Both the position numbers and the translations under genes were made by a program. A stretch of DNA of 64,000 nt from an uncultured virus (IMG/VR IMGVR_UViG_3300008266_011056) (Duplodnaviria > Heunggongvirae > Uroviricota > Caudoviricetes), in IMG/VR virus record IMGVR_UViG_3300008266_011056; one strand, given 5' to 3'. Of this stretch, positions 7,029-37,046 are shown piece after piece. Each line of letters opens with the position of its first letter. The stretch's first letter is position 1. The notes below the pieces were generated by a model. The model was not told the DNA's origin. It searched no databases and saw only the letters and a program-made list of their open reading frames with translations.

Positions 7029-9202
7029 TGAAAAAAGCAATAGAAGACATAAAAAAATCTGCATCTACTGGAGATGCCGGGGAAAAACCGTTAGGTGTAT
7101 TACTTGAGGAAAAGAAGTTTGAACAGATATCAGAAAAAGGTACGAAGACCTTAGATAAGACTTTAAAGGATGAAGTTGGTAAACAGTTAGAAGATATTAA
7201 TAAAACTTTAAAAGATTTAAAAGATAGTTTTAATAAGCCGAGCAGAGGAAAAGAGGATAAAGAGACTCCTGGTGAAAGCACCAAGTTAGGGGAAAAAGAA
7301 GCCCCGGTAACATTAAAAGAAAAATTAATGTCTGCTGTTGGTGGTATTAGAGCTAGAAGAGAAGCTACAAAAGAGTTCTTAAAAGCACCTATAAAGAATA
7401 TAAAAGAATCAATAGGTGGTTTTGCATCTAGTGTTCAAAATAAAGCCTATGAAAGAATGGGTGACATAGGAGATATAATTTCTGCACCAGCGGGTTATAA
7501 TCCGGAAAAAGAACAATTTGCAAAAGACTACGGGTTACGTACCGAAGAAGGTAGAGCAAGAGATCAAAGTAAGCGTGACGAAATGCGTGAACGTATCCTT
7601 AAAGCAGGGTATGATAAAAAAGAAGCAGAAAGAAGATTAAAAGAAGCTGATGAGTATGTTTCAGATGAAACAATGGCTGAAGGTAGGAAAAGGTACGAAG
7701 CTACAAAAGGTGCTCAACAAGAGCTAGCTGGAGCTAGAGGTGATATTTCGTCTGCCAAAAAACGTGGTTTTGAGGCTACTGATACAGAACAAGCTAGATT
7801 AGAAGCTGCACAAACTAATTTAGCAGCTATTGATCCAAGAGTAAGAGAAGCAGAGCAGAATTTAAAAGAAGTAAAAGCGGAAGGTGCAAAAGCATCAGAA
7901 AAAGAAAATGATGATAATGTTGTTACCTCTCAAGAGGCTATGGCTAAGTCCATGGAAGAAAATAATGTTATTATTGCTGATTTATTAGAAACTTCTAAAC
8001 AACAATTAGACTCTGTAAGAAAAATATCTGAGTCTATTTCTCCCAAGGAACCAGTTGATTTAGATTTACAATACCAACCTATTACCAAAAAACTAGACGA
8101 ACTTATAACTACTGTAAAAGAAAAAGAATTTACCGGTGGTAGCGGTGGTGTGGGTGGTAGTTTATTAGATACTGCAAAGGATTTATTAGGTGGTAGAGGG
8201 AAAGGTGGTGCAGCAGGAAAAGCTGCTGGTGCAGCTAGTCGTTTTAGTAGGCTTGGTACTGTTGCTAAAGTAGGTGGCGCAGCATTGGCTGTTGCCGGTG
8301 GCGCTTACGCTGCCTACTCTGGTTTTTCAGAAGCATCTGATGAACAAAAAGCTGCATTAGCTGACATTGAAGCTAAAAAGAAATCTGGTGAATTAACTGC
8401 TGAACAAGCTGATGCTATGACTAAGCAGGTTAATGAGCAAGCTACCGAGAAAAAAGGTGGAGCTGTTGGTGAAGGTGTAGGTATGGCTGCCGGTGGTTTA
8501 GCCGGTATGAAACTAGGTGCTGCATTAGGTTCGTTTGCCGGACCTGTAGGTACAGTTGTTGGAGGTGTAGCAGGCGGGGCTATAGGAGCCTTCGCAGGAA
8601 GTTCATTAGGTAAGAAAGCTGGTGAACTGGGTGGTAAAGTAATGAATTATTTTACAGGCGATACAAAGCAAGAAATACCTGCAGATGCTGTTAATACAAC
8701 CACAGGTGCTGCAGCTTTTCCTCTTACACCCCCTGGTGATAAAGCTAAACCAGTAAAGGCTACTGCTGCTTCTAAAGAAGTTTTTTCTAAAGACTATACT
8801 AAAGATCCAAAGTATCAAAAGTTATTACAAGAAGAGCAAGAAGTTATTAGGGGTAGAAATGTACGTACTGCTGGTGAAGGTAGAGAGGCTTCGGAAACGC
8901 TTAGCGTGAGTCAAGTAAGGGAAGCTGAAAGAGAAGCTAAAGCTCGCTATTTACAACAAGGGGGTGGTGCACCAAATGTAGCTCCAGTAAAGAAAGAGCC
9001 TAGTAGTTTAGGTAATTTAAGTGTTGAATATAATGACCAGATACGTGAGGCCGCTCAATCTAAACCAGCCCCTGCACCTGTAATAATGAACAATACGACT
9101 AATAATAGTAGTGGTACACAGTTTGCTCCAATGAAAGCAGTACCAAGAAGTCACACTAATTCTTCTTTAGATAAACATCTAGATAGAGTATCTACTTATT
9201 AA
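7028..9202 (+). CDS. Tape-measure-like / baseplate hub tail length determinator (gp29 position)
   Basis: 724 aa helical Ala/Glu/Lys-rich protein with Gly-zipper segments, directly after gp26/gp51. Confidence 0.6.
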   Translation: MKKAIEDIKKSASTGDAGEKPLGVLLEEKKFEQISEKGTKTLDKTLKDEVGKQLEDINKTLKDLKDSFNKPSRGKEDKETPGESTKLGEKEAPVTLKEKLMSAVGGIRARREATKEFLKAPIKNIKESIGGFASSVQNKAYERMGDIGDIISAPAGYNPEKEQFAKDYGLRTEEGRARDQSKRDEMRERILKAGYDKKEAERRLKEADEYVSDETMAEGRKRYEATKGAQQELAGARGDISSAKKRGFEATDTEQARLEAAQTNLAAIDPRVREAEQNLKEVKAEGAKASEKENDDNVVTSQEAMAKSMEENNVIIADLLETSKQQLDSVRKISESISPKEPVDLDLQYQPITKKLDELITTVKEKEFTGGSGGVGGSLLDTAKDLLGGRGKGGAAGKAAGAASRFSRLGTVAKVGGAALAVAGGAYAAYSGFSEASDEQKAALADIEAKKKSGELTAEQADAMTKQVNEQATEKKGGAVGEGVGMAAGGLAGMKLGAALGSFAGPVGTVVGGVAGGAIGAFAGSSLGKKAGELGGKVMNYFTGDTKQEIPADAVNTTTGAAAFPLTPPGDKAKPVKATAASKEVFSKDYTKDPKYQKLLQEEQEVIRGRNVRTAGEGREASETLSVSQVREAEREAKARYLQQGGGAPNVAPVKKEPSSLGNLSVEYNDQIREAAQSKPAPAPVIMNNTTNNSSGTQFAPMKAVPRSHTNSSLDKHLDRVSTY

Positions 9203-9226
9203 AAAAGGGGCTTAATGCCCCTTTTC
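9201..9226. terminator. Bidirectional intrinsic terminator
   Basis: AAAAAAGGGGC-TTAAT-GCCCCTTTT between convergent genes. Confidence 0.85.
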
Positions 9227-9388
9227 TTATTTCTGTTTCTTCATTACCCTACAACCGTCTGCTTCAGTTTGCCCTTGTTTACAAGGCTTCTTTACTTTAA
9301 CTTCTAGTTTTTTAGGTTCTTCTTTCTTAGGTGGTGCTGCGTAAGCAGAAGAACTAACCGCTAGAAAAAATGCTAGTAGTAGTTTCAT
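9227..9388 (-). CDS. Small secreted Lys-rich peptide, 53 aa, absent from the ORF track
   Basis: MKLLLAFFLAVSSSAYAAPPKKEEPKKLEVKVKKPCKQGQTEADGCRVMKKQK*; GAGG RBS; signal-peptide-like N-terminus. Confidence 0.75.
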   Translation of the reverse strand: MKLLLAFFLAVSSSAYAAPPKKEEPKKLEVKVKKPCKQGQTEADGCRVMKKQK

Positions 9389-9397
9389 AGTTACCTC

Positions 9398-10312
9398 TTA
9401 GTCGTCATTGGCGAGCTTGGCGAAGAAGGATAGTGATTCATCGTCATCTTCTTCATACTCACGTTTAGGTTGCGAAGGTGCTGCATGTGGTTTAGCAGCT
9501 GCTTTTGGTTTAGGTGGTGATTCAAACTCTTCGTTATCTAGATCTTGTGCAGCAGGTAGGGAACTACCACTAGCATTAAGCACATTCATTAGTTTAGTCT
9601 TTAGTTCATCGTAAGACTTAAAGTGCTTAGGATCCAAAAACTCTTGTAGAGAATGCTGGCTGTTCCAAATCTTTTCCATCTCATCATCGTCAGCTAGTAC
9701 TGATGGTGATTCAAATTCAGACTTATCGTAGTTACGATAACCCTCTACATTACGAATCTTGAGTTTGAAGTTAGCACCCTTCCAGAAGTCAAAAGGATTA
9801 ATTGGATCCTCATCTTCAAATTGAGGCTGCATAACATCCTTGATCTTGTCGAAGATCTTCTTGCCGAACTTATAAAGGAATACTTTACCTTCGTTCTCTG
9901 GATGCGCAGGATCTTTGACTACATAGATGTTAGAAATGTAAGTCAATCTACGCTTTTGTTTACGTACGATGTCTTTGTTAGACTCAAGACCTGTAGCCCA
10001 CAATTCGGTGTTAAGCTCAGAAACAGGGTCTGGCTTACCTAATGTAGTTAGTGAATTTTCGATGTACCACTTACCTGTAGGACCCTGGAATCCATGATTC
10101 CAAATACGTGTCCAAGGAAGTTCTTCACCTTTAGGAGGGGGTAGAAAACGAATAACTGCAAATCCGTTTCCTGATTTATCTACTTCTGGTTGCCAGAAGC
10201 GATCATCTTTTTGCGATTCTTGACCTTGGGGTTGCGCGATCTTCTCAACCTCTTTCATCAATGAATCAAAATTACCACGACCCTTCTTCAGGGCAGAAAA
10301 ATCTAATGCCAT
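9398..10312 (-). CDS. gp32: Single-stranded DNA-binding protein
   Basis: DDRFWQP..GNGFAVIRFLP..WYIENSLTT..FDFWKGANFKLKI..NYDKSEF; acidic tail. Confidence 0.97.
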   Translation of the reverse strand: MALDFSALKKGRGNFDSLMKEVEKIAQPQGQESQKDDRFWQPEVDKSGNGFAVIRFLPPPKGEELPWTRIWNHGFQGPTGKWYIENSLTTLGKPDPVSELNTELWATGLESNKDIVRKQKRRLTYISNIYVVKDPAHPENEGKVFLYKFGKKIFDKIKDVMQPQFEDEDPINPFDFWKGANFKLKIRNVEGYRNYDKSEFESPSVLADDDEMEKIWNSQHSLQEFLDPKHFKSYDELKTKLMNVLNASGSSLPAAQDLDNEEFESPPKPKAAAKPHAAPSQPKREYEEDDDESLSFFAKLANDD

Positions 10313-10345
10313 GTGTATCTCCGTATAAATGTGTATAGCGTTGTA

Positions 10346-10537
10346 TTAGCGACGTTTATGTTTTAAGGTGTTGCCATCATAAACTTCACTGTAAATCTCA
10401 TCCTCTAGATCATTATAATCATCGGAATTGATAACTAAATTATATATCTTGTTCCGATGTTTATCCATCTTATTGGAACCTTTTTCGACGCGATGAATTT
10501 TCTTTTCGCGATCCCAATCTATATTCTTCTGCTTCAT
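10346..10537 (-). CDS. Hypothetical protein
   Basis: 63 aa ORF in a tightly packed operon. Confidence 0.6.
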   Translation of the reverse strand: MKQKNIDWDREKKIHRVEKGSNKMDKHRNKIYNLVINSDDYNDLEDEIYSEVYDGNTLKHKRR

Positions 10538-10550
10538 ATAAATTAACTAT

Positions 10551-10769
10551 TTACTCTTCTTCACCTTTACGTTCTACCGCAATATAAGGCCACTGCGATA
10601 TCCTCTTAGTAATCTCAGCCTGATTTTGTGCTAACTTTACCAAAAATCTTTGAGTTTCTCTCATATGATCAGCTAGATGTTGGCAATTCTCATTTAACAT
10701 ATTAATGTTTTTCTCAATTTGTATAATTCTAGTCTGTACTAGATCCAAATCGTCTTCTAAAGATGTCAT
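10551..10769 (-). CDS. Hypothetical coiled-coil protein
   Basis: 72 aa ORF overlapping the end of gp59. Confidence 0.6.
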   Translation of the reverse strand: MTSLEDDLDLVQTRIIQIEKNINMLNENCQHLADHMRETQRFLVKLAQNQAEITKRISQWPYIAVERKGEEE

Positions 10770-11343
10770 TGTATTTTTCTTTTTTTACCGTAAGAAAAGG
10801 TTTATACTTCTTAATAGTTCTCGATATATCCGGCCAGATTAAGTCTAAAGCAAGTACTTCGTCTAATGCTGCAACATAGTTATTTATGCTATCCAATATA
10901 ACTAGAGTTTCTATAGAAATGTCGTTGCGCAAGAATGCTTTAAGTATAAACGGGTGTTGCCCGGTTGTTACTTTAAATATAGTATCGTACGGTAAATTAT
11001 CTCGATCACATATATCTCTAAGTTTACATATCTCCTTATCGAAGGTATAGCTTAAAGATTCAATGCGCCGCTTCCACTCCGTATATCTGGTTTTAGCCTC
11101 AGAATCAAATACACCACCCCAGCGATCACCTGATACGAAATTTGCTACTAAAAAATCTACTACATCTTTATCACTATAGGTATCTGCAACGCGTTTAATG
11201 GACAATAGATCCTTACGTTTATTAAACGCCTGGCGTGATGCTCTGACTTTTCCTTGTTGCTTAATCACATCATACTTGTCAGTAGTAAAATGTAATCTTA
11301 ATGCTAGGTAATAACGATAAACTTCAAATGGTTCCATTATCAT
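10729..11343 (-). CDS. gp59: Helicase loader
   Basis: YRYYLALRLHFTT..YD..ISIETLVILD..KKYKPFL; 33-59-32 gene order. Confidence 0.9.
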   Translation of the reverse strand: MIMEPFEVYRYYLALRLHFTTDKYDVIKQQGKVRASRQAFNKRKDLLSIKRVADTYSDKDVVDFLVANFVSGDRWGGVFDSEAKTRYTEWKRRIESLSYTFDKEICKLRDICDRDNLPYDTIFKVTTGQHPFILKAFLRNDISIETLVILDSINNYVAALDEVLALDLIWPDISRTIKKYKPFLTVKKEKYNDIFRRRFGSSTD

Positions 11344-11603
11344 ATAGGCAGATGACCTCTTGGTTTAATCATATTTGCCTGCTCGGCCTCTACTTGTATC
11401 TTTTCACGAAGTTTTTGATTTATTAATGGACCTATGGATTCAACATCAATATCCATTTCCTGGCAGTAATTAATAACTGCATCCATGTAACCAATCTTTA
11501 GTTTATTAACTCGCTCATCAATGAAGATACTAAACTCATTAGGTGATCTAAAGCGCTTGGTAATTACTAACGCATCAGTTAGTTCAGTTATGTCGTCGGT
11601 CAT
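11340..11603 (-). CDS. gp33: Late promoter transcription co-activator
   Basis: YMDAVINYC..ID.E..LI..LREKIQVEA..N; synteny. Confidence 0.9.
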   Translation of the reverse strand: MTDDITELTDALVITKRFRSPNEFSIFIDERVNKLKIGYMDAVINYCQEMDIDVESIGPLINQKLREKIQVEAEQANMIKPRGHLPI

Positions 11604-11917
11604 ATGAAATAAATGAGCCCTAAAAAGATGAGTTGAATAGCAAAACCTAATCCAATAGTTGCTACCATAATCATGTCTTTAAGTATAGCTGAACGGAAGA
11701 AATAAAGCAATAGACCGACCCATACAATTAAGGACATATCCAGGGGAGGAGTCTTATCCGTTACAGCCGTCATCAATGCATAATAACTTGGTATATTACT
11801 TAAGCATAATATAACAATACTTATCCAGGCAAATACATCAGCAGATGCTTTAGGAAACGACTCAAAAAACTTTACTGCTTTTTCTTTCCATACTATAAGT
11901 GTTTCCATTAAATTCAC
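11600..11917 (-). CDS. Hypothetical membrane protein (about 3 TM segments)
   Basis: Three hydrophobic stretches. Confidence 0.65.
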   Translation of the reverse strand: MNLMETLIVWKEKAVKFFESFPKASADVFAWISIVILCLSNIPSYYALMTAVTDKTPPLDMSLIVWVGLLLYFFRSAILKDMIMVATIGLGFAIQLIFLGLIYFI

Positions 11918-12453
11918 GTTCTATCTCCATAAAATATATGACGTCCAATACGTGCCACTACTGGTTTACCCCAGTTAGGTTTTTTAATGTAGTCAGCATG
12001 ATAGTATAATGCCTTCTCTACAGATGGCAATCTAAAATCCTCTAACAGGACCTTTTTAGCTACTTCCATAGATTCCGCATACATCTCTTTAGATCTTACT
12101 ACAGGTCCTTTATCGCAGTACCATGAGAACTGACAAACGATCTTTTCATCAATCTTTGTCTTTTGATATACTACTTGACAGATGTCATTAGGAAATTTTC
12201 CTGACTCTGCTCTATTTAATGTGACTTGAGCTACTGCAACCTTACCTTCAAAAGGCTCAGATGCTGCTTCGAAATAAATATTCTTTGCCAAACAATTAAG
12301 TTGTCTTTCCCTTTGTGCTAATGTGGGTGGCTTATCTTTAATATTTTCAACTTGCTTAATATTTTTAATCTTGTGTTTAGTAACTGCGCTAACACCTGTA
12401 TACGTACCTAGTAATAAAACAGCTGCTAATGCAACGGTAAAAAAGCGTGTCAT
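11914..12453 (-). CDS. Cell wall hydrolase (SleB / Hydrolase_2 family) with N-terminal signal or anchor
   Basis: CLAKNIYFEA..GKVAVAQVTLNR..CQFSWYC..YYHADY..IGRHIFY; start MTRFF after a GGAG RBS. Confidence 0.9.
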   Translation of the reverse strand: MTRFFTVALAAVLLLGTYTGVSAVTKHKIKNIKQVENIKDKPPTLAQRERQLNCLAKNIYFEAASEPFEGKVAVAQVTLNRAESGKFPNDICQVVYQKTKIDEKIVCQFSWYCDKGPVVRSKEMYAESMEVAKKVLLEDFRLPSVEKALYYHADYIKKPNWGKPVVARIGRHIFYGDRT

Positions 12454-12468
12454 GTGTAATTCTCCTAT

Positions 12469-12488
12469 TAAAGGGGGCAAGCCCCCCC
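12469..12488 (-). terminator. GC-rich hairpin terminator
   Basis: GGGGG-CTTG-CCCCC followed by TTT on the minus strand. Confidence 0.55.
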
Positions 12489-12491
12489 ATA

Positions 12492-12764
12492 CTAAGCGGT
12501 AGATTTCTTAGTAACTTTTACATCTGGAAGTTGAGAAACAAAACCATTCAAAGCTTGCGCTTTATTAATAATATCTGTTTCAGTGGGGTATGATGGAAAG
12601 CCTGGATGATCAGGTGGTGTTGCACCGGCGTGGCGAGCGTTTTCTACTTTAACTTGCCAGTCGTTGGAAACTTGATCTCGCTTACTGTAATAATCTTCAG
12701 TAAGCATTTCCTTGGCCATCTTAAGAAGTTCGAGACGGATCTCGAATGGTGACATATTACTCAT
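12492..12764 (-). CDS. Hypothetical phage protein
   Basis: PFEIRLELLKMA..YP..II.KA..L..FV; strong AAGGAG RBS. Confidence 0.75.
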   Translation of the reverse strand: MSNMSPFEIRLELLKMAKEMLTEDYYSKRDQVSNDWQVKVENARHAGATPPDHPGFPSYPTETDIINKAQALNGFVSQLPDVKVTKKSTA

Positions 12765-12825
12765 TTACATCTCCTTTTGTGTGTTTGTGTGATGGTAGTT
12801 TTAGAGATCTACCAACTCAATTTAT

Positions 12826-12900
12826 TTATCGATTAGCGATATACATGGTAATTTCAAAACCAAAACGCATATCTTGAGCTGCAGGTGTAGTCCACTTCAT
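12826..12900 (-). CDS. pqqA: Pyrroloquinoline quinone precursor peptide
   Basis: Hand translation MKWTTPAAQDMRFGFEITMYIANR*; W-x-x-P and GFE-x-T-x-Y with the E-x3-Y core; AAAGGAG RBS. Confidence 0.95.
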   Translation of the reverse strand: MKWTTPAAQDMRFGFEITMYIANR

Positions 12901-12976
12901 ATTTTTCTCCTTTATGGCGGCACTATTGCCGGTCCATATTATCTATTGAACATATGAAGTGAATCTACTAAAATAT

Positions 12977-12984
12977 TATTTATA
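12977..12984 (-). promoter_or_regulatory. T4-type late promoter upstream of pqqA
   Basis: Exact TATAAATA on the minus strand, about 75 nt upstream of the pqqA ATG. Confidence 0.7.
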
Positions 12985-13006
12985 CTACCGTACTGAAAAT
13001 CATTAA

Positions 13007-13360
13007 GGTAGCTGATTGGGTAATAAGGACAGCTACCGAAACCCCATCTAGCAATTTAAGCTGCTAGAGCGTAGTACTCGTCATTTGCGATTACTTATTT
13101 GCTTCATTAACGTCGATCGCCTGACGTGTTGTCCACTCCCCTACTCTTGACCCTGTCGAAACCATGTCTGGCCCCTCAAAAGAAGACTTTACCTTATTAC
13201 GAATATCTCGTTCAGGTGGAAGAGGTCCACACCCTAAACGATTCCATTCACTCTCAGTATAGTAGTACATATCTACTGGCATACAATCTCCTTTTGGTGG
13301 ACCAGGCGGGAGTCGAACCCGCGTCCAGAACCCTTTTCAGTTTGCATCATACAACAATTA
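13007..13360 (-). ncRNA. ssrA: Two-piece (circularly permuted) tmRNA: acceptor piece about 13360-13295, intervening segment 13294-13175, coding piece 13174 to about 13007; tag ANDEYYALAA
   Basis: Acceptor end GGACGCGGGTTCGACTCCCGCCTGGTCCACCA lies upstream of 5' end GGGCCAG..GGTTTCGAC; the 7-bp stem has the G3:U70 pair; tag ORF at 13088-13056. Confidence 0.93.
13091..13282 (-). CDS. Small ORF starting in the tmRNA intervening segment
   Basis: AAGGAG RBS directly after the CCA; MPVDMYYYTESEWNRLGCGPLPPER...; reads on into the coding piece. Confidence 0.5.
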   Translation of the reverse strand: MPVDMYYYTESEWNRLGCGPLPPERDIRNKVKSSFEGPDMVSTGSRVGEWTTRQAIDVNEANK

Positions 13361-13367
13361 AAAATAT

Positions 13368-13559
13368 TTATTTACTAAACTCTTTGTTTAAACTATAGTA
13401 AGCCCAAGCACCCATAAACGTATTCGGTTTACTCTTGTACCTATCGATATTCTCTAAACAAACCCTACATTGCGCGTCATCCTCATACAGACGTAAAATT
13501 AATTTATCTTTATCTGGAAAGTCTGATTCACGTATATTTCTACAGGAGCAAATTATCAT
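13368..13559 (-). CDS. bfd: Bacterioferritin-associated ferredoxin-like [2Fe-2S] protein
   Basis: MIICSC..CRVC matches the Bfd C-x-C...C-x2-C pattern, with a shorter spacer. Confidence 0.7.
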   Translation of the reverse strand: MIICSCRNIRESDFPDKDKLILRLYEDDAQCRVCLENIDRYKSKPNTFMGAWAYYSLNKEFSK

Positions 13560-13586
13560 AACCTATTCTCATCCGACCACAATAAG

Positions 13587-13615
13587 ATTTTAACGTCAAG
13601 GCAACAGAAAATCAA
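13587..13615 (-). promoter_or_regulatory. Sigma70-like promoter
   Basis: TTGATT-N17-TAAAAT upstream of bfd and the tmRNA. Confidence 0.65.
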
Positions 13616-13628
13616 TACTTTTGGTAAA

Positions 13629-14180
13629 TTAAACGTAATGTGCGTAAGTACCGATTATATATTTTGGTTTGTCTTTAGGTGGCATTCCTGCATGAGGATA
13701 CATCCAAAGTGGTGGAAAAATTAACATTCTACCTGCAACTGGACTAATTTCAATATCAAAATCAGGGAATACTGTTTTACCCTCTTCATTATCATCTAAG
13801 TATATAAATCCAACTAAGTAACGTCTTGCGCTATTATAATCAGCTACATCTACATGATAGTCGAAGTAACGTTCTTCGTTTTCATACTTCTTAATACGAA
13901 TTTCTTCTAATGCTTGAATCTTAGGTGGATCTCTGTAGTTAATATGATTAAAGTATTGATCGAATGCCTTTATAGAAACATCCGTAAGATACTCTACTAT
14001 AGGTTCCCAACCAGGGGTCTTATTAATGTTAAGTTGATCGAACTTATAACCTACCGTTCTCTTTTCTTCCCATTGCTCTTTTTCCTTCTCAAATTGCTCA
14101 ATCATTTTTTCACAATGTTGTTTAGGTAACACATTGTCAATTGTTAAAATTAAATCAGTTAGTTTTGTATCTTGTTTCAT
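13629..14180 (-). CDS. 2OG-Fe(II) oxygenase (prolyl-4-hydroxylase-like)
   Basis: H-x-D (YHVD), YLDD..G.T.F, FPP..YPH, KY. Confidence 0.85.
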   Translation of the reverse strand: MKQDTKLTDLILTIDNVLPKQHCEKMIEQFEKEKEQWEEKRTVGYKFDQLNINKTPGWEPIVEYLTDVSIKAFDQYFNHINYRDPPKIQALEEIRIKKYENEERYFDYHVDVADYNSARRYLVGFIYLDDNEEGKTVFPDFDIEISPVAGRMLIFPPLWMYPHAGMPPKDKPKYIIGTYAHYV

Positions 14181-14820
14181 ATAAATCCCTATAATGTAAT
14201 AAATCGTTCACCCAGTTATCTCTTTTTTCTTCAAATAACTGAGGTGGTTCCCCTTCAACACCAATAATTACTACCAGACGGTTGACTGGTATTTTATATA
14301 ACTCTTCATACATTATAGCATATGCTGAGCATTGCATAAAGTAGTTACTAATATATTCCTTCTTTTTAAGTTTACTAGATGATTTAAAATCAATTACAGC
14401 AAGCTTACCATTATACTCTGCAATACAATCAACCGTACCTGCTAGACGTAAATAGTCAGAATACATTCTCGATTCAAGACAATGTATGTTATTAATGTTA
14501 TGAATATAAGGTAACAGGCTTTGAAATAACTCTTTTTCAATAGGTGTTTTGTAACTTAACTCTTCATTGTTAAGATACGTCTCACAAAGTTTATGCATCT
14601 TTGTACCTCTAGAAGATGCTCGTTGAGTTATAATCTGGGCCTCAGCATGACCTATCTTATTGCGCCATTCCATAATACCTTGCCTGGAATGTTCAGCCAA
14701 TACGGTAGTCACCGAAGGATATTTGCTACCCTTCGGTGTAACATAATAACGTGTACCGTCTTCGTTTACTTGTTTGAGAGTGATTTGTTCACGATCAAAA
14801 CTTACATGATTAAAATGCAT
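14155..14820 (-). CDS. PD-(D/E)XK exonuclease (T4-like phage exonuclease)
   Basis: YPSVTTVL..RGT..H..AGTVDCIAEY..IDFKSS..YFMQ..AYA. Confidence 0.85.
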   Translation of the reverse strand: MHFNHVSFDREQITLKQVNEDGTRYYVTPKGSKYPSVTTVLAEHSRQGIMEWRNKIGHAEAQIITQRASSRGTKMHKLCETYLNNEELSYKTPIEKELFQSLLPYIHNINNIHCLESRMYSDYLRLAGTVDCIAEYNGKLAVIDFKSSSKLKKKEYISNYFMQCSAYAIMYEELYKIPVNRLVVIIGVEGEPPQLFEEKRDNWVNDLLHYRDLYETRYKTN

Positions 14821-14823
14821 TAA

Positions 14824-15459
14824 TTAATGAGATAAGACTTCTATTGCGTGATTATAATGTTTAATTCTATCCTCTAACCCTAGTGTACCGCCATTGATTT
14901 TTTTAGTCATAGTTAAAATATCACCTGAGTCCGCAAACTGATTTAATTTATTTACATGCCAGAACCAACATGCTGAGTGAATAGCATAATATGGATCAAA
15001 TAACATATCTGGGTCAGTAAGTAAGGTATCATCTTGGAATAAAACTTTTGAACAAGCACGGTAATTATCTTTACCAGTTAGTTGCAAAATTCCTCTACCA
15101 CGGTACTTCCAACCATCGCCAGAAGCTTCTGGTCCATTACCCATGCGATCAGCATAAGCTTTGTTAGCAATCTTCTGAGGCTGTCTCTCATATTGCTTTG
15201 CTACATCTGGAGGAAATCTTTTTGGCCAGGTACCTGTTAAACCTTTAGCACTATAATTAAGACCCTCTTCCAATCTTGTAAATTCTGCCGATTCGTGCGC
15301 ACATTGAGCAATAAATGCAGCTACTCTTTTTCTAGAATTAATACCATATTGAGGTAGAGCGTCTACTAACGACTCATACCAATCGCGAATGTTTTTTAAT
15401 TTAGGTAATAATTCTTTCAGTTGTGCTTCTGTGAAATTAAAATCAAATCCGTTACTCAT
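14824..15459 (-). CDS. GH19 (chitinase-class) endolysin
   Basis: AAFIAQCAHES..E..YRGRGILQLTG..NY..SACWFW..TKKINGG..GL.DR. Confidence 0.9.
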   Translation of the reverse strand: MSNGFDFNFTEAQLKELLPKLKNIRDWYESLVDALPQYGINSRKRVAAFIAQCAHESAEFTRLEEGLNYSAKGLTGTWPKRFPPDVAKQYERQPQKIANKAYADRMGNGPEASGDGWKYRGRGILQLTGKDNYRACSKVLFQDDTLLTDPDMLFDPYYAIHSACWFWHVNKLNQFADSGDILTMTKKINGGTLGLEDRIKHYNHAIEVLSH

Positions 15460-15471
15460 TTATTCCCCTTC

Positions 15472-15723
15472 TTATTTTTCTTGTATAGGAGCATTTTCTA
15501 CGCAGTACCCCCCTTTAAAAATATAAACGTTTGAATCAACTCGAACTTGCTCATATAATTCATTATCTACACATTTATAAGGATCACGGTAAGATGAAAA
15601 AAAGGTGTATGCTCCATAACCTACCCCACCTAGTAACATTATAATAGGTAAGTATTTTAAATACTTGACTATCTCCGGTAACGCAGATAGTATCTGGGGT
15701 AGGTTTTTTAGGAGCTCCTTCAT
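15472..15723 (-). CDS. Single-pass membrane protein
   Basis: One TM segment; directly upstream of the endolysin. Confidence 0.6.
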   Translation of the reverse strand: MKELLKNLPQILSALPEIVKYLKYLPIIMLLGGVGYGAYTFFSSYRDPYKCVDNELYEQVRVDSNVYIFKGGYCVENAPIQEK

Positions 15724-15932
15724 TTACGATTTTTAGATGCAACCGAGTCTTTCAACATACCTTTAATAATTAATAATACGCGGTTTTTTTCTCTCTCTGT
15801 CAAATGTTTAACTAAAATAAGTTTATCATCGTAACTATTTGCACCTTCTAAAAACTCCTTAGGTACGGTCAATTTCTTTTTAGGTTTAAGTTTATTTAGT
15901 TTCTTCTTAAAATCCTCTGGTGACTCGTCCAT
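15720..15932 (-). CDS. Hypothetical basic protein
   Basis: 70 aa ORF with AAGGA RBS. Confidence 0.6.
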   Translation of the reverse strand: MDESPEDFKKKLNKLKPKKKLTVPKEFLEGANSYDDKLILVKHLTEREKNRVLLIIKGMLKDSVASKNRK

Positions 15933-15950
15933 TTTTCCTTAAGTGATAGA

Positions 15951-16694
15951 TTACGTTCCGTATTTTTCTTCATATTCCATCCTTGCTAAAATATACTCTT
16001 TAACTAAAGCCGAACGAACAATATCACCTACTTCGAATTCTACAACATTAAATGATGGCATCATATCCGCGATGGCCATAAATTTCTTCAGACCGGACAT
16101 ATCAGTTTTCTTATATAAATCCGTCTGTCTGAAGTCCCCGCATAGGATGATTTTGGAACGATTACCTACACGAGTCATTATACTATTTAGCTCCATATCA
16201 GTCATGTTCTGGCATTCATCTACGATAATAATAGAATCATCCAATGTAATCCCGCGAACAAATGAAGTTATCATAAAAGCAGCAGATTGCTGCTCCTGAA
16301 GACGTTGAAATGCATCTTTTCTAGAGAATAGATCTTCGCAGATTTCTACATACGGTTGCTGATAAACCTCGGTCTTTTCTTTTTCATCTCCAGGTAAATG
16401 TCCAATATCTCTGGACGGGACCGCTGATCTTACAATAACAACTTTTTGATAGGGGGTTGAACGATCTAGAACTTCTTCTAGGGCTTTGTAAAGTGCAATA
16501 TAAGATTTTCCTGTTCCTGCGACTCCATGTAATAAAATGGCTGATGAATTTTTATAAAGCTCAAAAAACTTTCTTTGATTATTAGTTAAAGGTTGTATTG
16601 TTCTTAGGTCATCAATTCGTAGTTTCAATTTATTTGATACTAATGAAACTTTTGGTTGATTATCTACGTTTAACTGAGCTTGCTTTCTTGCCAT
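15951..16694 (-). CDS. phoH: PhoH-like ATPase
   Basis: GVAGTGKS P-loop, GHLPG, RGITL, DECQN, TRVG, GDFRQ.DL, DIVRS. Confidence 0.95.
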   Translation of the reverse strand: MARKQAQLNVDNQPKVSLVSNKLKLRIDDLRTIQPLTNNQRKFFELYKNSSAILLHGVAGTGKSYIALYKALEEVLDRSTPYQKVVIVRSAVPSRDIGHLPGDEKEKTEVYQQPYVEICEDLFSRKDAFQRLQEQQSAAFMITSFVRGITLDDSIIIVDECQNMTDMELNSIMTRVGNRSKIILCGDFRQTDLYKKTDMSGLKKFMAIADMMPSFNVVEFEVGDIVRSALVKEYILARMEYEEKYGT

Positions 16695-16705
16695 GGAACC
16701 CTCGT

Positions 16706-16746
16706 AAAAAAAGAAAAGGGATCTACGTCAAATAGACCCCTTTCTT
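16706..16746 (-). terminator. Terminator-like hairpin directly upstream of phoH
   Basis: AAGAAAGGGGTCTA-TTTGACG-TAGATCCCTTTTCTTTTTTT. Confidence 0.7.
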
Positions 16747-16774
16747 GATATGGTTGAAAAGAAGATATTTACTG

Positions 16775-17029
16775 TCATCGTCTAGATAGCTTATCTGAAA
16801 GATTACTTTTATAATTCGCGGCACTAATCTTAGATAAGACTTCTTGAAATCCACTATCAGGTTTACGAATACCTAAACGCACTGAATCGCCCATTGCAGC
16901 AGCTTGACCTGATTCATGGTAGCGTTCTAGTTGTGGATTATTTTTTATAAACTCATCATAAGAAGAAATACCAAAGTAATGTTCTTCTACTTGATTAGTT
17001 TGTTTGTTAAGAAACGTATATCTCGGCAT
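16775..17029 (-). CDS. Hypothetical phage protein (FmdB-like N-terminus)
   Basis: MPRYTF..NP.LE..DSGFQEVL.KI pattern. Confidence 0.6.
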   Translation of the reverse strand: MPRYTFLNKQTNQVEEHYFGISSYDEFIKNNPQLERYHESGQAAAMGDSVRLGIRKPDSGFQEVLSKISAANYKSNLSDKLSRR

Positions 17030-24903: not shown

Positions 24904-25227
24904 CTAAACTGTAAAACTTGAACCACATCCACACGTTGCTTTGACGTTAGGATTTTTTATTTTAAACTCTGCACCCATAATAGATTTTTCGTAATCAATT
25001 TCTGCTTCTGTTAAGTATTGCATAGACATAGAGTCTACTATAACACCTACTCCATCTCTTTCAAAGATAAAATCATCTTCCGCTGCAGGTTGTTCTTCTA
25101 ATGTAAATCCATACTGAAACCCAGAGCAACCTCCACCTTGTACGAAGATTCTTAGCTTTAGATTAGGGTCTTCTTCTTCAATAATTTCTTTAATTTTTTT
25201 AACTGCTGAATCGCTGATGGTGATCAT
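24904..25227 (-). CDS. erpA: A-type Fe-S carrier (ErpA/IscA)
   Basis: [28 protein letters not shown]. Confidence 0.93.
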
Positions 25228-25924
25228 TTTGCTTTGCTAACCTTAAAAATTTGAAGATGTTAAAATACATCCAACCTATATCAAACTCAAACCATTTTAA
25301 ACTAAGCTTTGGATTACTAGGATCAAGATGATGATTATTATGAAGTAACTCACCACCAACCAAAACATCAATCGGCATAACATTTCGAGATTCCTCTCTC
25401 GTATCGCCGTTTCTATATCCCCAGCTATGTCCCACGCCGTTGACCACACCAGCTGCCCAAAACGGTATCCAAGCGATTTGACACAGCCAAAGTCCAAACC
25501 CAACAAAGCCAAACAGAATAATATTAATACAAAGCAAAACAAGTACACCAAGATAAGTATACTTACTGTAGACATTCTTCTCTAACCAATCCTCCGGTGT
25601 ACCTACACCATACGTGTTGACCATAGCTTTATCTTTAGCCGCACTATTATATAACCAAGCACCTTTAAACAACACTGTTAATAAACCATAATGAACAGGT
25701 GAATGAGGGTCCTCTTTTTTATCACAATAACGGTGATGTAATCTATGAACTGCAACCCATTCTTTAGTTACCATACCAGTAGTCATCCATAACCACCAGC
25801 GCATAAAGTGAGATAGAACGGGATGAAAAATTAATGCTTTATGTGCCTGGCCTCTATGTAAAAATAAAGTAACGCAGATAATAGTAATATGGGTTGTCAA
25901 AAGCAGGTAAATTAACTCACTCAT
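25199..25924 (-). CDS. Membrane fatty-acid (delta-9-type) desaturase
   Basis: His boxes LHR..AH, HRLHH and [13 protein letters not shown]. Confidence 0.92.
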
Positions 25925-26300
25925 TATAATTGTCTTTATAATCTTTTATCGCTGCTTTAATCGCATCTTCTGCAAGAATAGAACAGTGAATTTTGACTGG
26001 TGGTAATGCAAGTTCCGTAGCAATTTGAGTGTTTTTAATTTGCGACGCTTCTGCCAGAGTTTTTCCCTTAACCCATTCAGTGACCAGTGACGACGAAGCG
26101 ATCGCCGAACCACAACCGTACGTCTTGAATTTCGCATCTTCTATTACACCTTCTTCGCTTACTTTAATTTGCAACTTCATAACGTCACCACAGGCTGGTG
26201 CACCTACCATACCCGTACCAACTCTTTTTACTTCTTTTGCAAAAGTTCCTACATTACGTGGATTTTCATAATGATCTAAAACTTTTTCTGAATATGACAT
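25917..26300 (-). CDS. iscU: Fe-S cluster scaffold
   Basis: YSEKVLDHYENPRNVG, APACGD, GCGSAIASS, LPPVKIHCS. Confidence 0.97.
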   Translation of the reverse strand: MSYSEKVLDHYENPRNVGTFAKEVKRVGTGMVGAPACGDVMKLQIKVSEEGVIEDAKFKTYGCGSAIASSSLVTEWVKGKTLAEASQIKNTQIATELALPPVKIHCSILAEDAIKAAIKDYKDNYNE

Positions 26301-26301
26301 T

Positions 26302-26547
26302 TTAATCGTGAATAAAAGATTCAACCTCTTGTATTGTTTGTAATCCAACCATCTTTTTTAAGATAGTATTATCTTCTATCATAATCATGGTTGGTACTGA
26401 ACGTATTCCATATTCTGTAGCTAGTTCCATATTCTCGTCAATATCAATTACCTCAATAGGAATACTTGTTTCTATTCTATTTAATATTTCCTTTAACGAC
26501 TTACATGGCTTACACCATTCTGCCGTGAATCGTAAAATTTTTTTCAT
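26302..26547 (-). CDS. Thioredoxin
   Basis: WCKPC active site, SVPT. Confidence 0.9.
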   Translation of the reverse strand: MKKILRFTAEWCKPCKSLKEILNRIETSIPIEVIDIDENMELATEYGIRSVPTMIMIEDNTILKKMVGLQTIQEVESFIHD

Positions 26548-35647: not shown

Positions 35648-36621
35648 TTTTTTGACCTGTAGTGAGCTAATCTTTTTTGTTCAATAGAACGAATCTTTGG
35701 CATCATTTTTAATACTAGATTATTTTGGAAGGTCTTCATTCTCTTCACTTGCTGCTCAACTCTAGACTTTTCAGAAGCTGATAATTGTGATTTATCTCTT
35801 CCACGTAAAAGACGCTTGTACAAAGCTCTACGGGCGGCTAAGATCGCTCTTTTCTTTAAGGTTTCAGAAGTAGAGGCACGACGCAATTTCATACGTAACG
35901 CTACACCTCTTTTGCCTTTGGTTCTAGAAAAAGCTTGTCTCTTTTTCATGCGAGCTTGAGCGGAGAGAGCTTCTTCTATTTCTTCTTTATCATCTTCAAC
36001 AAGCTCATCATCTTCGTAATAATCTACAATATCTTCCCATGTAAGATCATTTACCATTTTATCTAAGTCATCTTCGGTTAAATTATCTTCCTCATCTGAT
36101 TCAGTTTCTTCAGTATTAAGTTTTGACATACGCTCTAAATGAGCTTCATGATCTTTTTTCTGCTTTGCTTCAAAATCTTCACGGGCTTTTTTATTCTTAG
36201 CAATAACGTCTAATAATCTTTTGGCTCCTGCATCTGGATCATAACCTGACTTTTTAAGACCTTGTTTAAACTTTTCATGCGCAGACATTGGCATTTTTAC
36301 AGCTTCTTCTACCTCACCAACATCCGAAGCTGGTACATGCGCGTAGGGTAAATCAGCTAATACCGGGTCATCGTGAATAGCTAATTTTCGCATTTCTTCA
36401 ACATGTACTTTCATGTAGTCTTCATGTTGATTAAGTACACCCAATGCCTCTAAAGCATCATGGGCAGCAGACATATGATAGGTAAAATCATGTATCATAT
36501 GAGGGGTAGCTTTACCTAACTCTTTTGCTTTTTTTTCAATAAACAAGTAGTTGTCAGTAGCCTGCATGGCGTTTTTTAGCAACTCATGCTGCTTATTTAA
36601 TTCTGGATTTTCTAATTTCAT
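35644..36621 (-). CDS. Hypothetical protein, probable internal head protein
   Basis: Acidic middle, very basic C-terminus after EEALS; ATGA coupling to dps. Confidence 0.6.
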   Translation of the reverse strand: MKLENPELNKQHELLKNAMQATDNYLFIEKKAKELGKATPHMIHDFTYHMSAAHDALEALGVLNQHEDYMKVHVEEMRKLAIHDDPVLADLPYAHVPASDVGEVEEAVKMPMSAHEKFKQGLKKSGYDPDAGAKRLLDVIAKNKKAREDFEAKQKKDHEAHLERMSKLNTEETESDEEDNLTEDDLDKMVNDLTWEDIVDYYEDDELVEDDKEEIEEALSAQARMKKRQAFSRTKGKRGVALRMKLRRASTSETLKKRAILAARRALYKRLLRGRDKSQLSASEKSRVEQQVKRMKTFQNNLVLKMMPKIRSIEQKRLAHYRSKK

Positions 36622-37046
36622 TTGATTATAGACCTTAACATCCAACTATGTTTTTCATGAGCTTGAATTCTGTCTTGTAGATAATTAGCAATACCTTCTT
36701 CACCAGCGTCAGTAGCATCTTTATAAGCTGTCATTAATGTAGCTAACAATTTTAAATTCTCTGTAAATAAATTGCGCATCATCTCTAGACCGTTAGGAAT
36801 AACATCCGACTCTGTAATAGATGTTAGTTCTTGCATACGTCTTAAAGTACCCGGTGCGTATTCATCTAAAGTACGAATTAGTTCAGCAATGGTATCTACC
36901 GACCCTTGCACGTCCTCATACAACTCACCTAGAAAATCATGATATTGAACGAAATCAGGACCCTCTACATTCCAATGATAAAATTGAGCTTTTAAATAAA
37001 AAGTAAAAGCATCTGCTAAAGTTTGTTTTAAAGTATCTTTTAACAT
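36618..37046 (-). CDS. dps: Dps / ferritin-like DNA-protecting protein
   Basis: HWNVEG..F..H....E.Y..D.IAE..R..K..WML ferroxidase motifs. Confidence 0.93.
   Translation of the reverse strand: MLKDTLKQTLADAFTFYLKAQFYHWNVEGPDFVQYHDFLGELYEDVQGSVDTIAELIRTLDEYAPGTLRRMQELTSITESDVIPNGLEMMRNLFTENLKLLATLMTAYKDATDAGEEGIANYLQDRIQAHEKHSWMLRSIIK

Follow-up and report, generated by a model that had tools for sequence, protein, structure and literature searches.

Why would a phage carry a gene for the peptide precursor of PQQ and none of the genes required to turn this peptide into the cofactor? The question is raised by an ORF of only 75 bases, including the stop codon, in DNA of an uncultured virus (IMG/VR record IMGVR_UViG_3300008266_011056); the window, i.e. 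the whole stretch that was analyzed, comprises 64,000 nucleotides. The ORF lies on the minus strand at 12826..12900, consists of 24 codons plus TAA, and translates to MKWTTPAAQDMRFGFEITMYIANR. An initial annotation, made from the letters by themselves, had described it as a phage-encoded pqqA with an AAAGGAG ribosome-binding site, and both elements were found in the sequence: the Shine-Dalgarno sequence occupies 12907..12913 on the minus strand and is separated from the ATG by a 6-nt spacer. The assignment to PqqA, for which a profile search had been proposed, was borne out by both curated models, namely Pfam PF08042 (38.9 bits, cut-off 21.1, E 7.8e-10, model positions 1-19 of 19) and the NCBIfam equivalog TIGR02107 (39.1 bits, cut-off 20, E 4.8e-10, positions 1-21 of 21). 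A six-frame profile search of the 165-kb genome revealed one pqqA above cut-off (36.7 bits, E 1e-9), while a degenerate DNA pattern of the PqqA core matched once in the window and in none of 100 shuffled versions of it. The ORF is a genuine member of the PqqA family and not a chance frame.

The features that a substrate of PQQ synthesis needs are all in place. The Glu-x3-Tyr pair is intact (E16-I-T-M-Y20), as is the W-x2-P motif of the leader (W3-T-T-P6), which we take to have a role in PqqD binding, and the length of 24 residues lies within the range of about 20-30 typical of the family. The same layout of W-x-x-P and Glu-Tyr was present in 119 viral and 138 bacterial homologues among the matches listed. 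According to the literature, the conserved Glu and Tyr of PqqA are the residues that are cross-linked and become the PQQ skeleton (Coutinho et al. 2020; PMC9851590).

The window belongs to a complete IMG/VR record of 165,076 bp with direct terminal repeats and a G+C content of 35.8%. T4-type core genes flank pqqA on both sides (gp32, gp59, gp33, DNA polymerase, portal, major head, and tail sheath). Among them, gp32, gp59, and the gp33 late coactivator, assigned with Pfam, are close to it; the window also encodes a clamp loader, RegA, DNA polymerase, UvsX, a helicase, ribonucleotide reductase, and baseplate genes, and the portal, terminase, prohead protease, scaffold, major head, and tail sheath genes are located elsewhere in the genome. 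In the major head protein, Pelagibacter phage Mosig (66.4%), whose host is SAR11, and Melnitz (66.0%), whose host is an OM43 methylotroph, come nearest among cultured phages. Near-identical DNA was found in sequencing runs of 15 studies (one of them possibly the source) described as freshwater, lake water, reservoir, or 'fungus metagenome', and an independent lake run (X4) yielded contigs identical to the window, including one of 679 bases that spans 12447-13125 across pqqA. Hence, pqqA sits in a bona fide phage genome and not in a fragment of host DNA.

The initial annotation had noted no pqqB-E genes in the window, and this absence extends to the complete phage genome. Curated models of PqqE, PqqC, and PqqB found no match there, although the PqqC result is a weak negative, since the positive control of that search matched in no control genome. 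For PqqD, only a sub-threshold stretch of 10.4 bits inside a 563-aa frame was obtained, and the model of PQQ-dependent alcohol/methanol dehydrogenases had no match in the complete genome. Furthermore, a Pfam scan of 212 phage ORFs (15, 88, and 109 in three sets) revealed no PqqF/TldD-type protease, no radical SAM enzyme, and no SAM-cycle enzyme. Thus, the association with pqqBCDE that is counted among the marks of the family was not found in the phage; it is not a strict requirement, since the bacterial genomes G003 and G004 also have pqqA copies far from pqqE. With no pqqB-E, methanol dehydrogenase, radical SAM, or SAM-cycle genes of its own, the phage would supply the peptide only.

Is the gene likely to be expressed, and when? 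An exact TATAAATA late promoter had been claimed upstream of the ORF, and this T4-type late promoter motif is indeed present on the minus strand at 12977..12984, in intergenic DNA, 76 nt ahead of the pqqA start codon; promoter prediction gave no sigma-70-type site at this position on that strand. The number of copies is no argument for a promoter, since the window holds fewer than expected (6 versus 12.2 in shuffles); the argument is their placement. The genome as a whole contains 12 sites versus about 34 expected from base composition, an approximately 3-fold depletion, and nine of the 12 lie on the coding strand, where 110 of the 121 ORFs with at least 150 aa are also found. Seven of these nine sites are intergenic. 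Four of the seven stand 25-51 nt before virion-gene ORFs that are led by a Shine-Dalgarno sequence and named by PHROGs: tail sheath (phrog_23, E 1e-134), prohead (phrog_1064, E 2e-6, a weak match), head scaffolding (phrog_237, E 7e-82), and major head (phrog_138, E 2e-163). The fifth precedes pqqA, at a greater distance from the ATG than at the four virion genes, and the remaining two are found 5-11 nt before ORFs lacking a Shine-Dalgarno sequence (an HNH endonuclease and an unannotated ORF). The phage also encodes a gp33-like late-transcription coactivator (11340..11603, minus strand; PF16805, 69 bits), which indicates that a T4-type late transcription apparatus is present. Since TATAAATA is depleted and, apart from pqqA, stands before the genes for tail sheath, scaffold, and major head protein, it seems to behave as a late promoter of this phage, which makes late transcription of pqqA credible, and the copy before pqqA is probably functional. 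Across the viral pqqA loci listed, the motif is not enriched (upstream of the gene in 5 of 117 versus 3 in the opposite-strand control), which fits with most of those phages not being T4-like.

The genes around pqqA follow each other on the minus strand in the order PhoH, GH19-type hydrolase, PD-(D/E)XK nuclease, 2OG-Fe(II) oxygenase, a 63-aa ORF, tmRNA, TATAAATA, pqqA, a 90-aa ORF, cell-wall hydrolase, a 105-aa ORF, gp33, gp59, and gp32. The tmRNA, directly upstream of pqqA, is of the permuted two-piece type with the tag ANDEYYALAA (12994..13404, minus strand; RF01850 137.4 bits, RF04321 139.8 bits; called by ARAGORN at 12965-13387) and matches the betaproteobacterial model. In Melnitz, the tmRNA gene is reported to carry a glutamine riboswitch at its 3' end (Melnitz paper); no such element was found here, at either gathering or permissive thresholds. 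On the other side, 61 nt after pqqA, the 90-aa ORF (12492..12764, minus strand) has its own AAAGGAG ribosome-binding site and no Pfam or PHROG match, and a relative of it also follows pqqA in viral contig L090. No terminator was called between the two genes, which are probably co-transcribed. The next gene downstream, the cell-wall hydrolase (11914..12480, minus strand; PF07486, 88.2 bits), adjoins pqqA also in L065, L006, L038, L028, and L068. L065 is syntenic over a longer distance (nuclease, permuted tmRNA, pqqA, cell-wall hydrolase, gp33, and gp59), and its tmRNA lies upstream of pqqA with a gap of about 67 nt. The proteins encoded in its flanks share 37-50% identity with those of the window, and its PqqA equals that of the window at 12 of 22 core residues (counted from the two strings); as L065 shares the gene order despite this divergence, the tmRNA-pqqA unit would be old in this subgroup. 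Contigs from a freshwater metatranscriptome (X20) that fall on 9000-17000 cover the tmRNA and 12613-12764, with no usable coverage of pqqA and with neither level nor strand readable, and a further RNA run (X22) gave no contigs on 9000-17000.

These data led us to favor, with a probability of about 0.72, a functional phage pqqA, whose peptide would be made late in infection and converted to PQQ by host enzymes, sustaining a PQQ-dependent energy supply. The gene would be transcribed late from TATAAATA, possibly also by read-through from the tmRNA, together with the 90-aa ORF and the cell-wall hydrolase. The peptide would be bound by host PqqD and cross-linked by host PqqE, after which a host protease, PqqB, and PqqC would finish PQQ, one peptide being consumed per PQQ. 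After the shut-off of host transcription, the precursor, being short-lived, would be exhausted while the enzymes persist, and we propose that this is the reason why the phage supplies only the consumable component. Periplasmic PQQ-dependent dehydrogenases would stay loaded, and energy would last while virions are built. The whole chain, i.e. late expression, PqqD capture, PqqE cross-linking, PQQ completion, and the benefit to a dehydrogenase, is what we infer from the gene content and arrangement. If the host is a Methylophilaceae methylotroph, which we consider most likely, the dehydrogenase served would be methanol dehydrogenase, and we assume that the peptide of the window is then compatible with the PqqD and PqqE of that host. 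As stated in PMC9851590, methylotrophs carry several pqqA copies (five in Hyphomicrobium denitrificans), transcription of pqqA and pqqE tracks the rate of PQQ synthesis, and, in a study cited there, cell-free host extract alone converted purified PqqA to PQQ. The introduction of the same paper mentions only limited gains from over-expression of pqq genes, which makes precursor limitation of PQQ output uncertain.

A tblastn search of the peptide against phage genomes, another check that the initial annotation had put forward, found PqqA-like frames in 12 of 50,697 phage records. Nine of the 12 belong to Methylophilales/Methylophilaceae phages (Melnitz with four records, Venkman, MEP301, MEP401, MEP402, and P19250A), and the other three are one unclassified Caudoviricetes and two 'Acinetobacter phage' records. 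The frame is unannotated in most of these records, and that of Melnitz has an ORF on the opposite strand annotated at the site instead. One PqqA match above cut-off each was found in Melnitz (31.6 bits) and in the records of L065 and L067. When IMG/VR was scanned with a degenerate pattern, at least 120 viral stretches with a PqqA-like ORF were retrieved. A readable match was given by 119 of the 120 listed loci (L088 being the exception), all of them ATG-started ORFs of 23-25 codons, with the Met 1-3 codons before the Trp and with 4-5 residues following the Tyr, and in most of the 119 an AGGA/GGAG-like run, judged by eye, stands 5' of the ATG. No relatives of PqqB, C, D, or E were detected in the flanks of the 120 listed loci, of which 80 had substantial flanks. 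Among the 20 longer pqqA contigs of those listed, 19 had PHROG matches beside pqqA and 13 showed clear phage hallmarks, while none of the four ORFs beside pqqA in L075 matched PHROGs. The gene occurs in at least three phage contexts, i.e. Erf/Sak-RecE recombination modules, terminase/head genes, and T4-like replication genes.

The peptide of the window carries Gln at core position 7 (A-Q-D/E-M). Nine of 88 viral peptides among the matches listed have this residue, and none of 138 bacterial ones does; the comparison is like-for-like, covers listed matches only, and includes related copies, and is therefore an indication and not a test. The carriers among those listed are the window, Melnitz, L007, L067, L020, L041, L047, L090, and L098, with L007 and L067 having the same Gln-7 sequence. 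This distribution suggests that a Gln-7 pqqA circulates among phages. Since the subtype was seen only in phages among the matches listed, the pqqA of the window probably came to this phage by descent or by exchange with other phages, and not as a fresh copy of a host gene.

Which bacterium, then, would provide the enzymes? A tighter pattern scan of bacterial sequences gave at least 126 stretches, mostly from Methylophilaceae, together with other Burkholderiales and Methylophaga. The PQQ-using betaproteobacterial host deduced in the initial annotation agrees with these data: the nearest listed PqqA peptides belong to Burkholderiales in GTDB (including Methylophilaceae) or to Methylophaga, and the tmRNA fits the betaproteobacterial model. 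The host enzymes on which its proposal depended were found as well. PqqE was above cut-off in five of five candidate host genomes, and the closest listed bacterial PqqA, in Rhodoferax locus L195 (20 of 22 core residues), heads a pqqABCDE operon with all four enzyme genes above curated cut-offs. Two streamlined methylotroph genomes (1.2-1.3 Mb) have three dispersed pqqA copies each, which points to a high precursor demand, and the other three candidates have one each. None of the five candidate host genomes had a beta-type permuted tmRNA above cut-off, so that the tmRNA singles out no host among them.

The benefit might lie elsewhere than in methanol oxidation: PQQ would be made, but in a non-methylotrophic PQQ user, such as a Rhodoferax- or Limnobacter-like member of Burkholderiales with glucose or alcohol dehydrogenases, or for another role, e.g. 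redox protection. We regard this as unlikely, even though the PqqA peptide itself speaks for it. The nearest bacterial peptides among those listed come from two Rhodoferax MAGs, unclassified Burkholderiales MAGs, and Limnobacter and agree with the window at 19-20 of 22 core residues, versus 15-16 of 22 for the common Methylophilaceae type, and the C-terminal type of the window (FGFEITMYIANR) was not found in a sample of 201 genomes of the Ca. Methylopumilus family. The PqqA-like frames in the two 'Acinetobacter phage' records, and the quite different peptide types in viral contigs such as L065 and L008, are also in line with other hosts. However, the phage genome, with 35.8% G+C, is close to the loci of Methylopumilus and an OM43-like genome, i.e. 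streamlined Methylophilaceae (35-36%), and not to the other candidate loci (49-62%). Moreover, its phosphate porin has relatives in 49 of 61 sampled genomes of the Ca. Methylopumilus family (best identity 45%) versus 3 of 61 genomes of the family of the Rhodoferax MAG (best identity 30%), and in a second sample of the latter family 0 of 41 genomes had one at E<=1e-20. Genes for the porin and PstS, adjacent in the phage, lie within about 3-10 kb on one contig in several Methylophilaceae genomes. PstS was also considered as a host tracer and set aside as uninformative, as its identity is 55-60% in both candidate families. Finally, Melnitz, the nearest cultured relative bearing pqqA, infects a methylotroph and shares Gln-7, and its peptide differs from OM43-type peptides though its host is OM43; a PqqA unlike that of its own host makes the peptide type an unreliable guide to the host. 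The tracers partly disagree, since the peptide type favors other Burkholderiales, and on the strength of G+C content, kinship with Melnitz, and the distribution of the phosphate porin we put the chances of a Methylophilaceae host at roughly two in three.

The same peculiarity of the peptide could be read in an opposite way, as that of a decoy that occupies host PqqD and PqqE and shuts down or redirects PQQ synthesis. The subtype with Gln-7 and the IANR tail is phage-specific among the matches listed, was not found in the probable host family, and need not be an ordinary substrate. We consider this very unlikely, since one would expect Glu or Tyr to be lost in a decoy, whereas both cross-link residues and the leader motif are intact. 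Furthermore, among the matches listed the tail VTMYVMNK occurs in both groups, in 61 of 88 peptides from viruses and 61 of 138 from bacteria, and the two cores most often met in viruses are also the two most frequent in bacteria, which fits substrates.

Still less probable is that pqqA has no role in infection and is carried along neutrally, as a piece of bacterial DNA acquired together with the neighboring RNA gene. It is true that the gene lies in a variable accessory region beside the tmRNA and that in other phages it lies near tRNA genes, typical landing places of foreign DNA (within about 1.5 kb in Melnitz, L007/L067, L047, L062, and L029; no RNA gene was found near pqqA in 8 of 15 sources scanned). 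However, the codons bear signs of purifying selection. Over 110 distinct viral CDSs encoding 59 distinct peptides among the matches listed, pooled pN/pS was 0.25; because the search pattern had fixed nine residues, the ratio was recomputed on the 13 free codons, where it was 0.38, with a pS of 0.62 that is close to saturation. The mean entropy of the listed CDSs at codon positions 1, 2, and 3 was 0.49, 0.33, and 1.09, respectively. Between the window and its nearest listed relatives, silent changes outnumber replacements (3/1 for L007, 5/1 for L098, 7/2 for L047, and 8/2 for L090), whereas the 66 bases on each side of the gene are unalignable between them. Six contigs of lake run X4 follow pqqA as far as the stop codon and diverge beyond it, so that the gene appears to occupy several contexts in one lake. 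The start codon and the ORF length are kept in all 119 readable viral copies listed, and pqqA occurs on several phage backbones that are unrelated to each other; the SAR11 phage Mosig lacks it, with no PqqA-model match at E<=1 in its complete genome. Taken as a whole, the viral pqqA genes compared here are under purifying selection, as judged from these substitution patterns.

The transcript leader has some structure of its own. Just upstream of the ribosome-binding site, a G+C-rich hairpin (CGGCA-ATAG-TGCCG; 12918..12931, minus strand) is possibly a stabilizing 5' stem-loop, and a comparable short leader hairpin was predicted in 9 of 10 relatives folded, L065 having instead the tmRNA 3' hairpin with a U run. 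The fold of the pqqA leader has a z of -4.1 and includes CACTTCATAT (12952..12961, minus strand), whose 10 nt are perfectly complementary to the start region of pqqA (ATATGAAGTG). Such a length was reached in only 2 of 2000 shuffled upstream regions and is the greatest among the 253 loci listed, yet the pairing is not conserved in relatives, and we set it aside as a functional element that would hide the start codon. The idea that the locus functions solely at the RNA level, whether as a structured element or as the trailing part of the tmRNA precursor, and that the open frame is incidental, could draw on this unusually stable fold of leader and ORF and on the anti-start pairing, but it is hardly credible given that both tmRNA models end at or before 12994, that variation is concentrated at third codon positions, that relatives do not conserve the pairing, and that two protein models match the ORF.

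Returning to the functional phage pqqA, its features might be combined into a broader picture, in which T4-like phages of PQQ-dependent bacteria keep their own Gln-7 lineage of PqqA, a subgroup of them carries tmRNA and pqqA as a late module, and the peptide is a tuned substrate. We offer this only tentatively and would not expect it to hold in full. If true, the phage peptide would be more than a spare copy, competing with or outperforming host PqqA at PqqD/PqqE or working across several hosts, and the coupling of tmRNA and pqqA would reflect shared high-level expression or processing.

PQQ is the cofactor of the enzymes with which methylotrophs, abundant in fresh waters and in the sea, take the first and energy-yielding step in using methanol. 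With 75 bases, pqqA illustrates how small an auxiliary gene can be when it tops up an ingredient that is consumed stoichiometrically; since genes of this size fall below gene-calling thresholds, viral effects on C1 cycling may be undercounted. The placement of the late promoter, in turn, makes a concrete prediction about the timing of pqqA expression.

As a kind, phage-borne pqqA has already been published (in 2020) and is evidently common. Among the papers that our literature search covered, no other report of a phage-encoded PqqA was found beyond Coutinho et al. 2020: the Melnitz paper is silent on a phage pqqA and names PQQ solely as an addition to the medium, the MEP phage paper mentions neither PQQ nor a phage pqqA, PMC11118758 deals with bacterial PqqA co-expressed with defence systems, PMC12801897 and PMC9564219 refer to PQQ only in passing, and pqq is absent from the main text of a Methylophilaceae transcriptome paper (PMC3728764). 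What appears to be new here is the evidence for a late promoter, the conserved tmRNA-pqqA linkage, and the apparently phage-specific Gln-7 subtype not found in the probable host family.

The closest precedent comes from Lake Baikal, where T4-like phages with Methylophilaceae as their predicted hosts were reported to encode PqqA (Coutinho et al. 2020, bioRxiv 10.1101/2020.04.02.019802, PMC7678222). These viruses share with the window a freshwater origin, a T4-like nature, a G+C content of about 35%, and a PqqA read as an auxiliary gene of methanol oxidation. However, the Baikal populations are reported to carry also methanol dehydrogenase, radical SAM proteins, and SAM-cycle genes, none of which is present in the genome of the window, and the passages of that paper covered here make no mention of a promoter or tmRNA linkage of pqqA, whereas the window has both. 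Cultured Methylophilales phages contain PqqA ORFs of 23-24 codons that are 64-75% identical to the peptide of the window. Melnitz, the nearest relative among them, has the Gln-7 subtype and a major head protein 66% identical, but its pqqA lies between tRNA-Arg and tRNA-Leu, upstream of the baseplate hub, with no ATAAATA within 150 nt upstream; the other cultured phages bearing pqqA are, unlike the window, small and have different backbones. Methylotrophic bacteria, too, have stand-alone pqqA genes far from pqqBCDE, with three copies in Ca. Methylopumilus universalis and in an OM43-like MAG. However, these are of the host's own type, whereas that of the window is of the Gln-7 subtype, seen only in phages among the matches listed, and has a T4-type late promoter and a phage tmRNA upstream. 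A functional parallel is psbA of cyanophages, a phage copy of the fastest-used host component that prolongs energy supply through infection. The two differ in what is replenished, since psbA encodes a protein subunit that is damaged and replaced, while the pqqA peptide is itself the starting material from which four or five host enzymes build a small-molecule cofactor.

Next to pqqA, the phage itself encodes a permuted two-piece tmRNA with the tag ANDEYYALAA (window 12994-13404, minus strand), which was recognized by the betaproteobacterial model with a score of 137 bits. Since no permuted tmRNA of betaproteobacterial type scored above the cut-off in any of the five candidate host genomes (0/5), the phage supplies a type of tmRNA that is absent from these bacteria. 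The same arrangement, a permuted tmRNA and then pqqA, is common to the window (12826-13404, minus strand) and L065 (2141-2570, plus strand), a syntenic viral contig of 10 kb whose PqqA shares only about half of its residues with that of the window. In L065, pqqA follows the tmRNA after about 67 nt, a terminator-like hairpin with a U run separates the two genes, and the T4-type late promoter motif TATAAATA was not found between them. Across the complete genome of the phage under study (G000), this motif occurs at 12 sites versus about 34 expected, and these sites are concentrated upstream of virion genes; the roughly three-fold depletion suggests that late promoters at other places are selected against.

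The pqqA leader in the window folds with a z-score of -4.1, and an upstream segment (12952-12961) pairs perfectly over 10 nt with the start codon region (12894-12903, minus strand). This pairing was the longest of its kind among 253 loci, and it is not conserved in relatives.

Helper genes for iron and redox functions also cluster in the window (24907-26547 and 36621-37046, minus strand), coding for an IscA/SufA-like Fe-S protein, a fatty-acid desaturase, an IscU-like NifU_N scaffold, thioredoxin, and ferritin, all except the last adjoining ribonucleotide reductase genes. Fe-S clusters are required by PqqE, the host enzyme that cross-links PqqA, but helper genes of such kinds are common in aquatic T4-like phages.

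Further genes were found on contig C1 of G000, in the stretches L263 and L264 outside the window. A likely anti-defence gene on the plus strand (C1:129914-130381, L263:8914-9381) encodes a protein that matches the Pfam family Tad3 (E = 8.8e-40), an inhibitor of type I Thoeris. A queuosine/preQ0 set in L263 (GTP cyclohydrolase I, QueF, QueC, and 6-pyruvoyl-tetrahydropterin synthase; C1:126096-133934) hints at modification of either a DNA base or tRNA. Adjacent plus-strand genes encode PstS and a phosphate-selective outer-membrane porin (C1:143594-146032, L264:5594-8032); relatives of this porin are present in 49 of 61 Methylophilaceae-family genomes, several of which have PstS and porin genes about 3-10 kb apart. 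Unusual auxiliary genes for a phage are those for a DOPA 4,5-dioxygenase-family protein and for the alpha subunit of a Rieske ring-hydroxylating oxygenase (C1:147460-151279, L264:9460-13279).

Outside this genome, pqqA on the 72-kb viral contig L062 is preceded at a distance of about 2.1 kb by a plus-strand glutamine riboswitch aptamer (307-357, 61.9 bits) and followed after about 1.4 kb by three tRNA genes. PqqA-like frames with 58% identity were found in two records named "Acinetobacter phage MD-2021a" (hits H11 and H12; CAKLQF020000010.1 and CAKLQH020000055.1); phage pqqA may extend beyond phages of methylotrophs. In Melnitz, a phage of an OM43 methylotroph, the pqqA frame lies unannotated on the plus strand (L001:3967-4072, corresponding to MZ577097.1 76100-76205), and the "hypothetical protein" annotated antisense over the same bases is probably a miscall.
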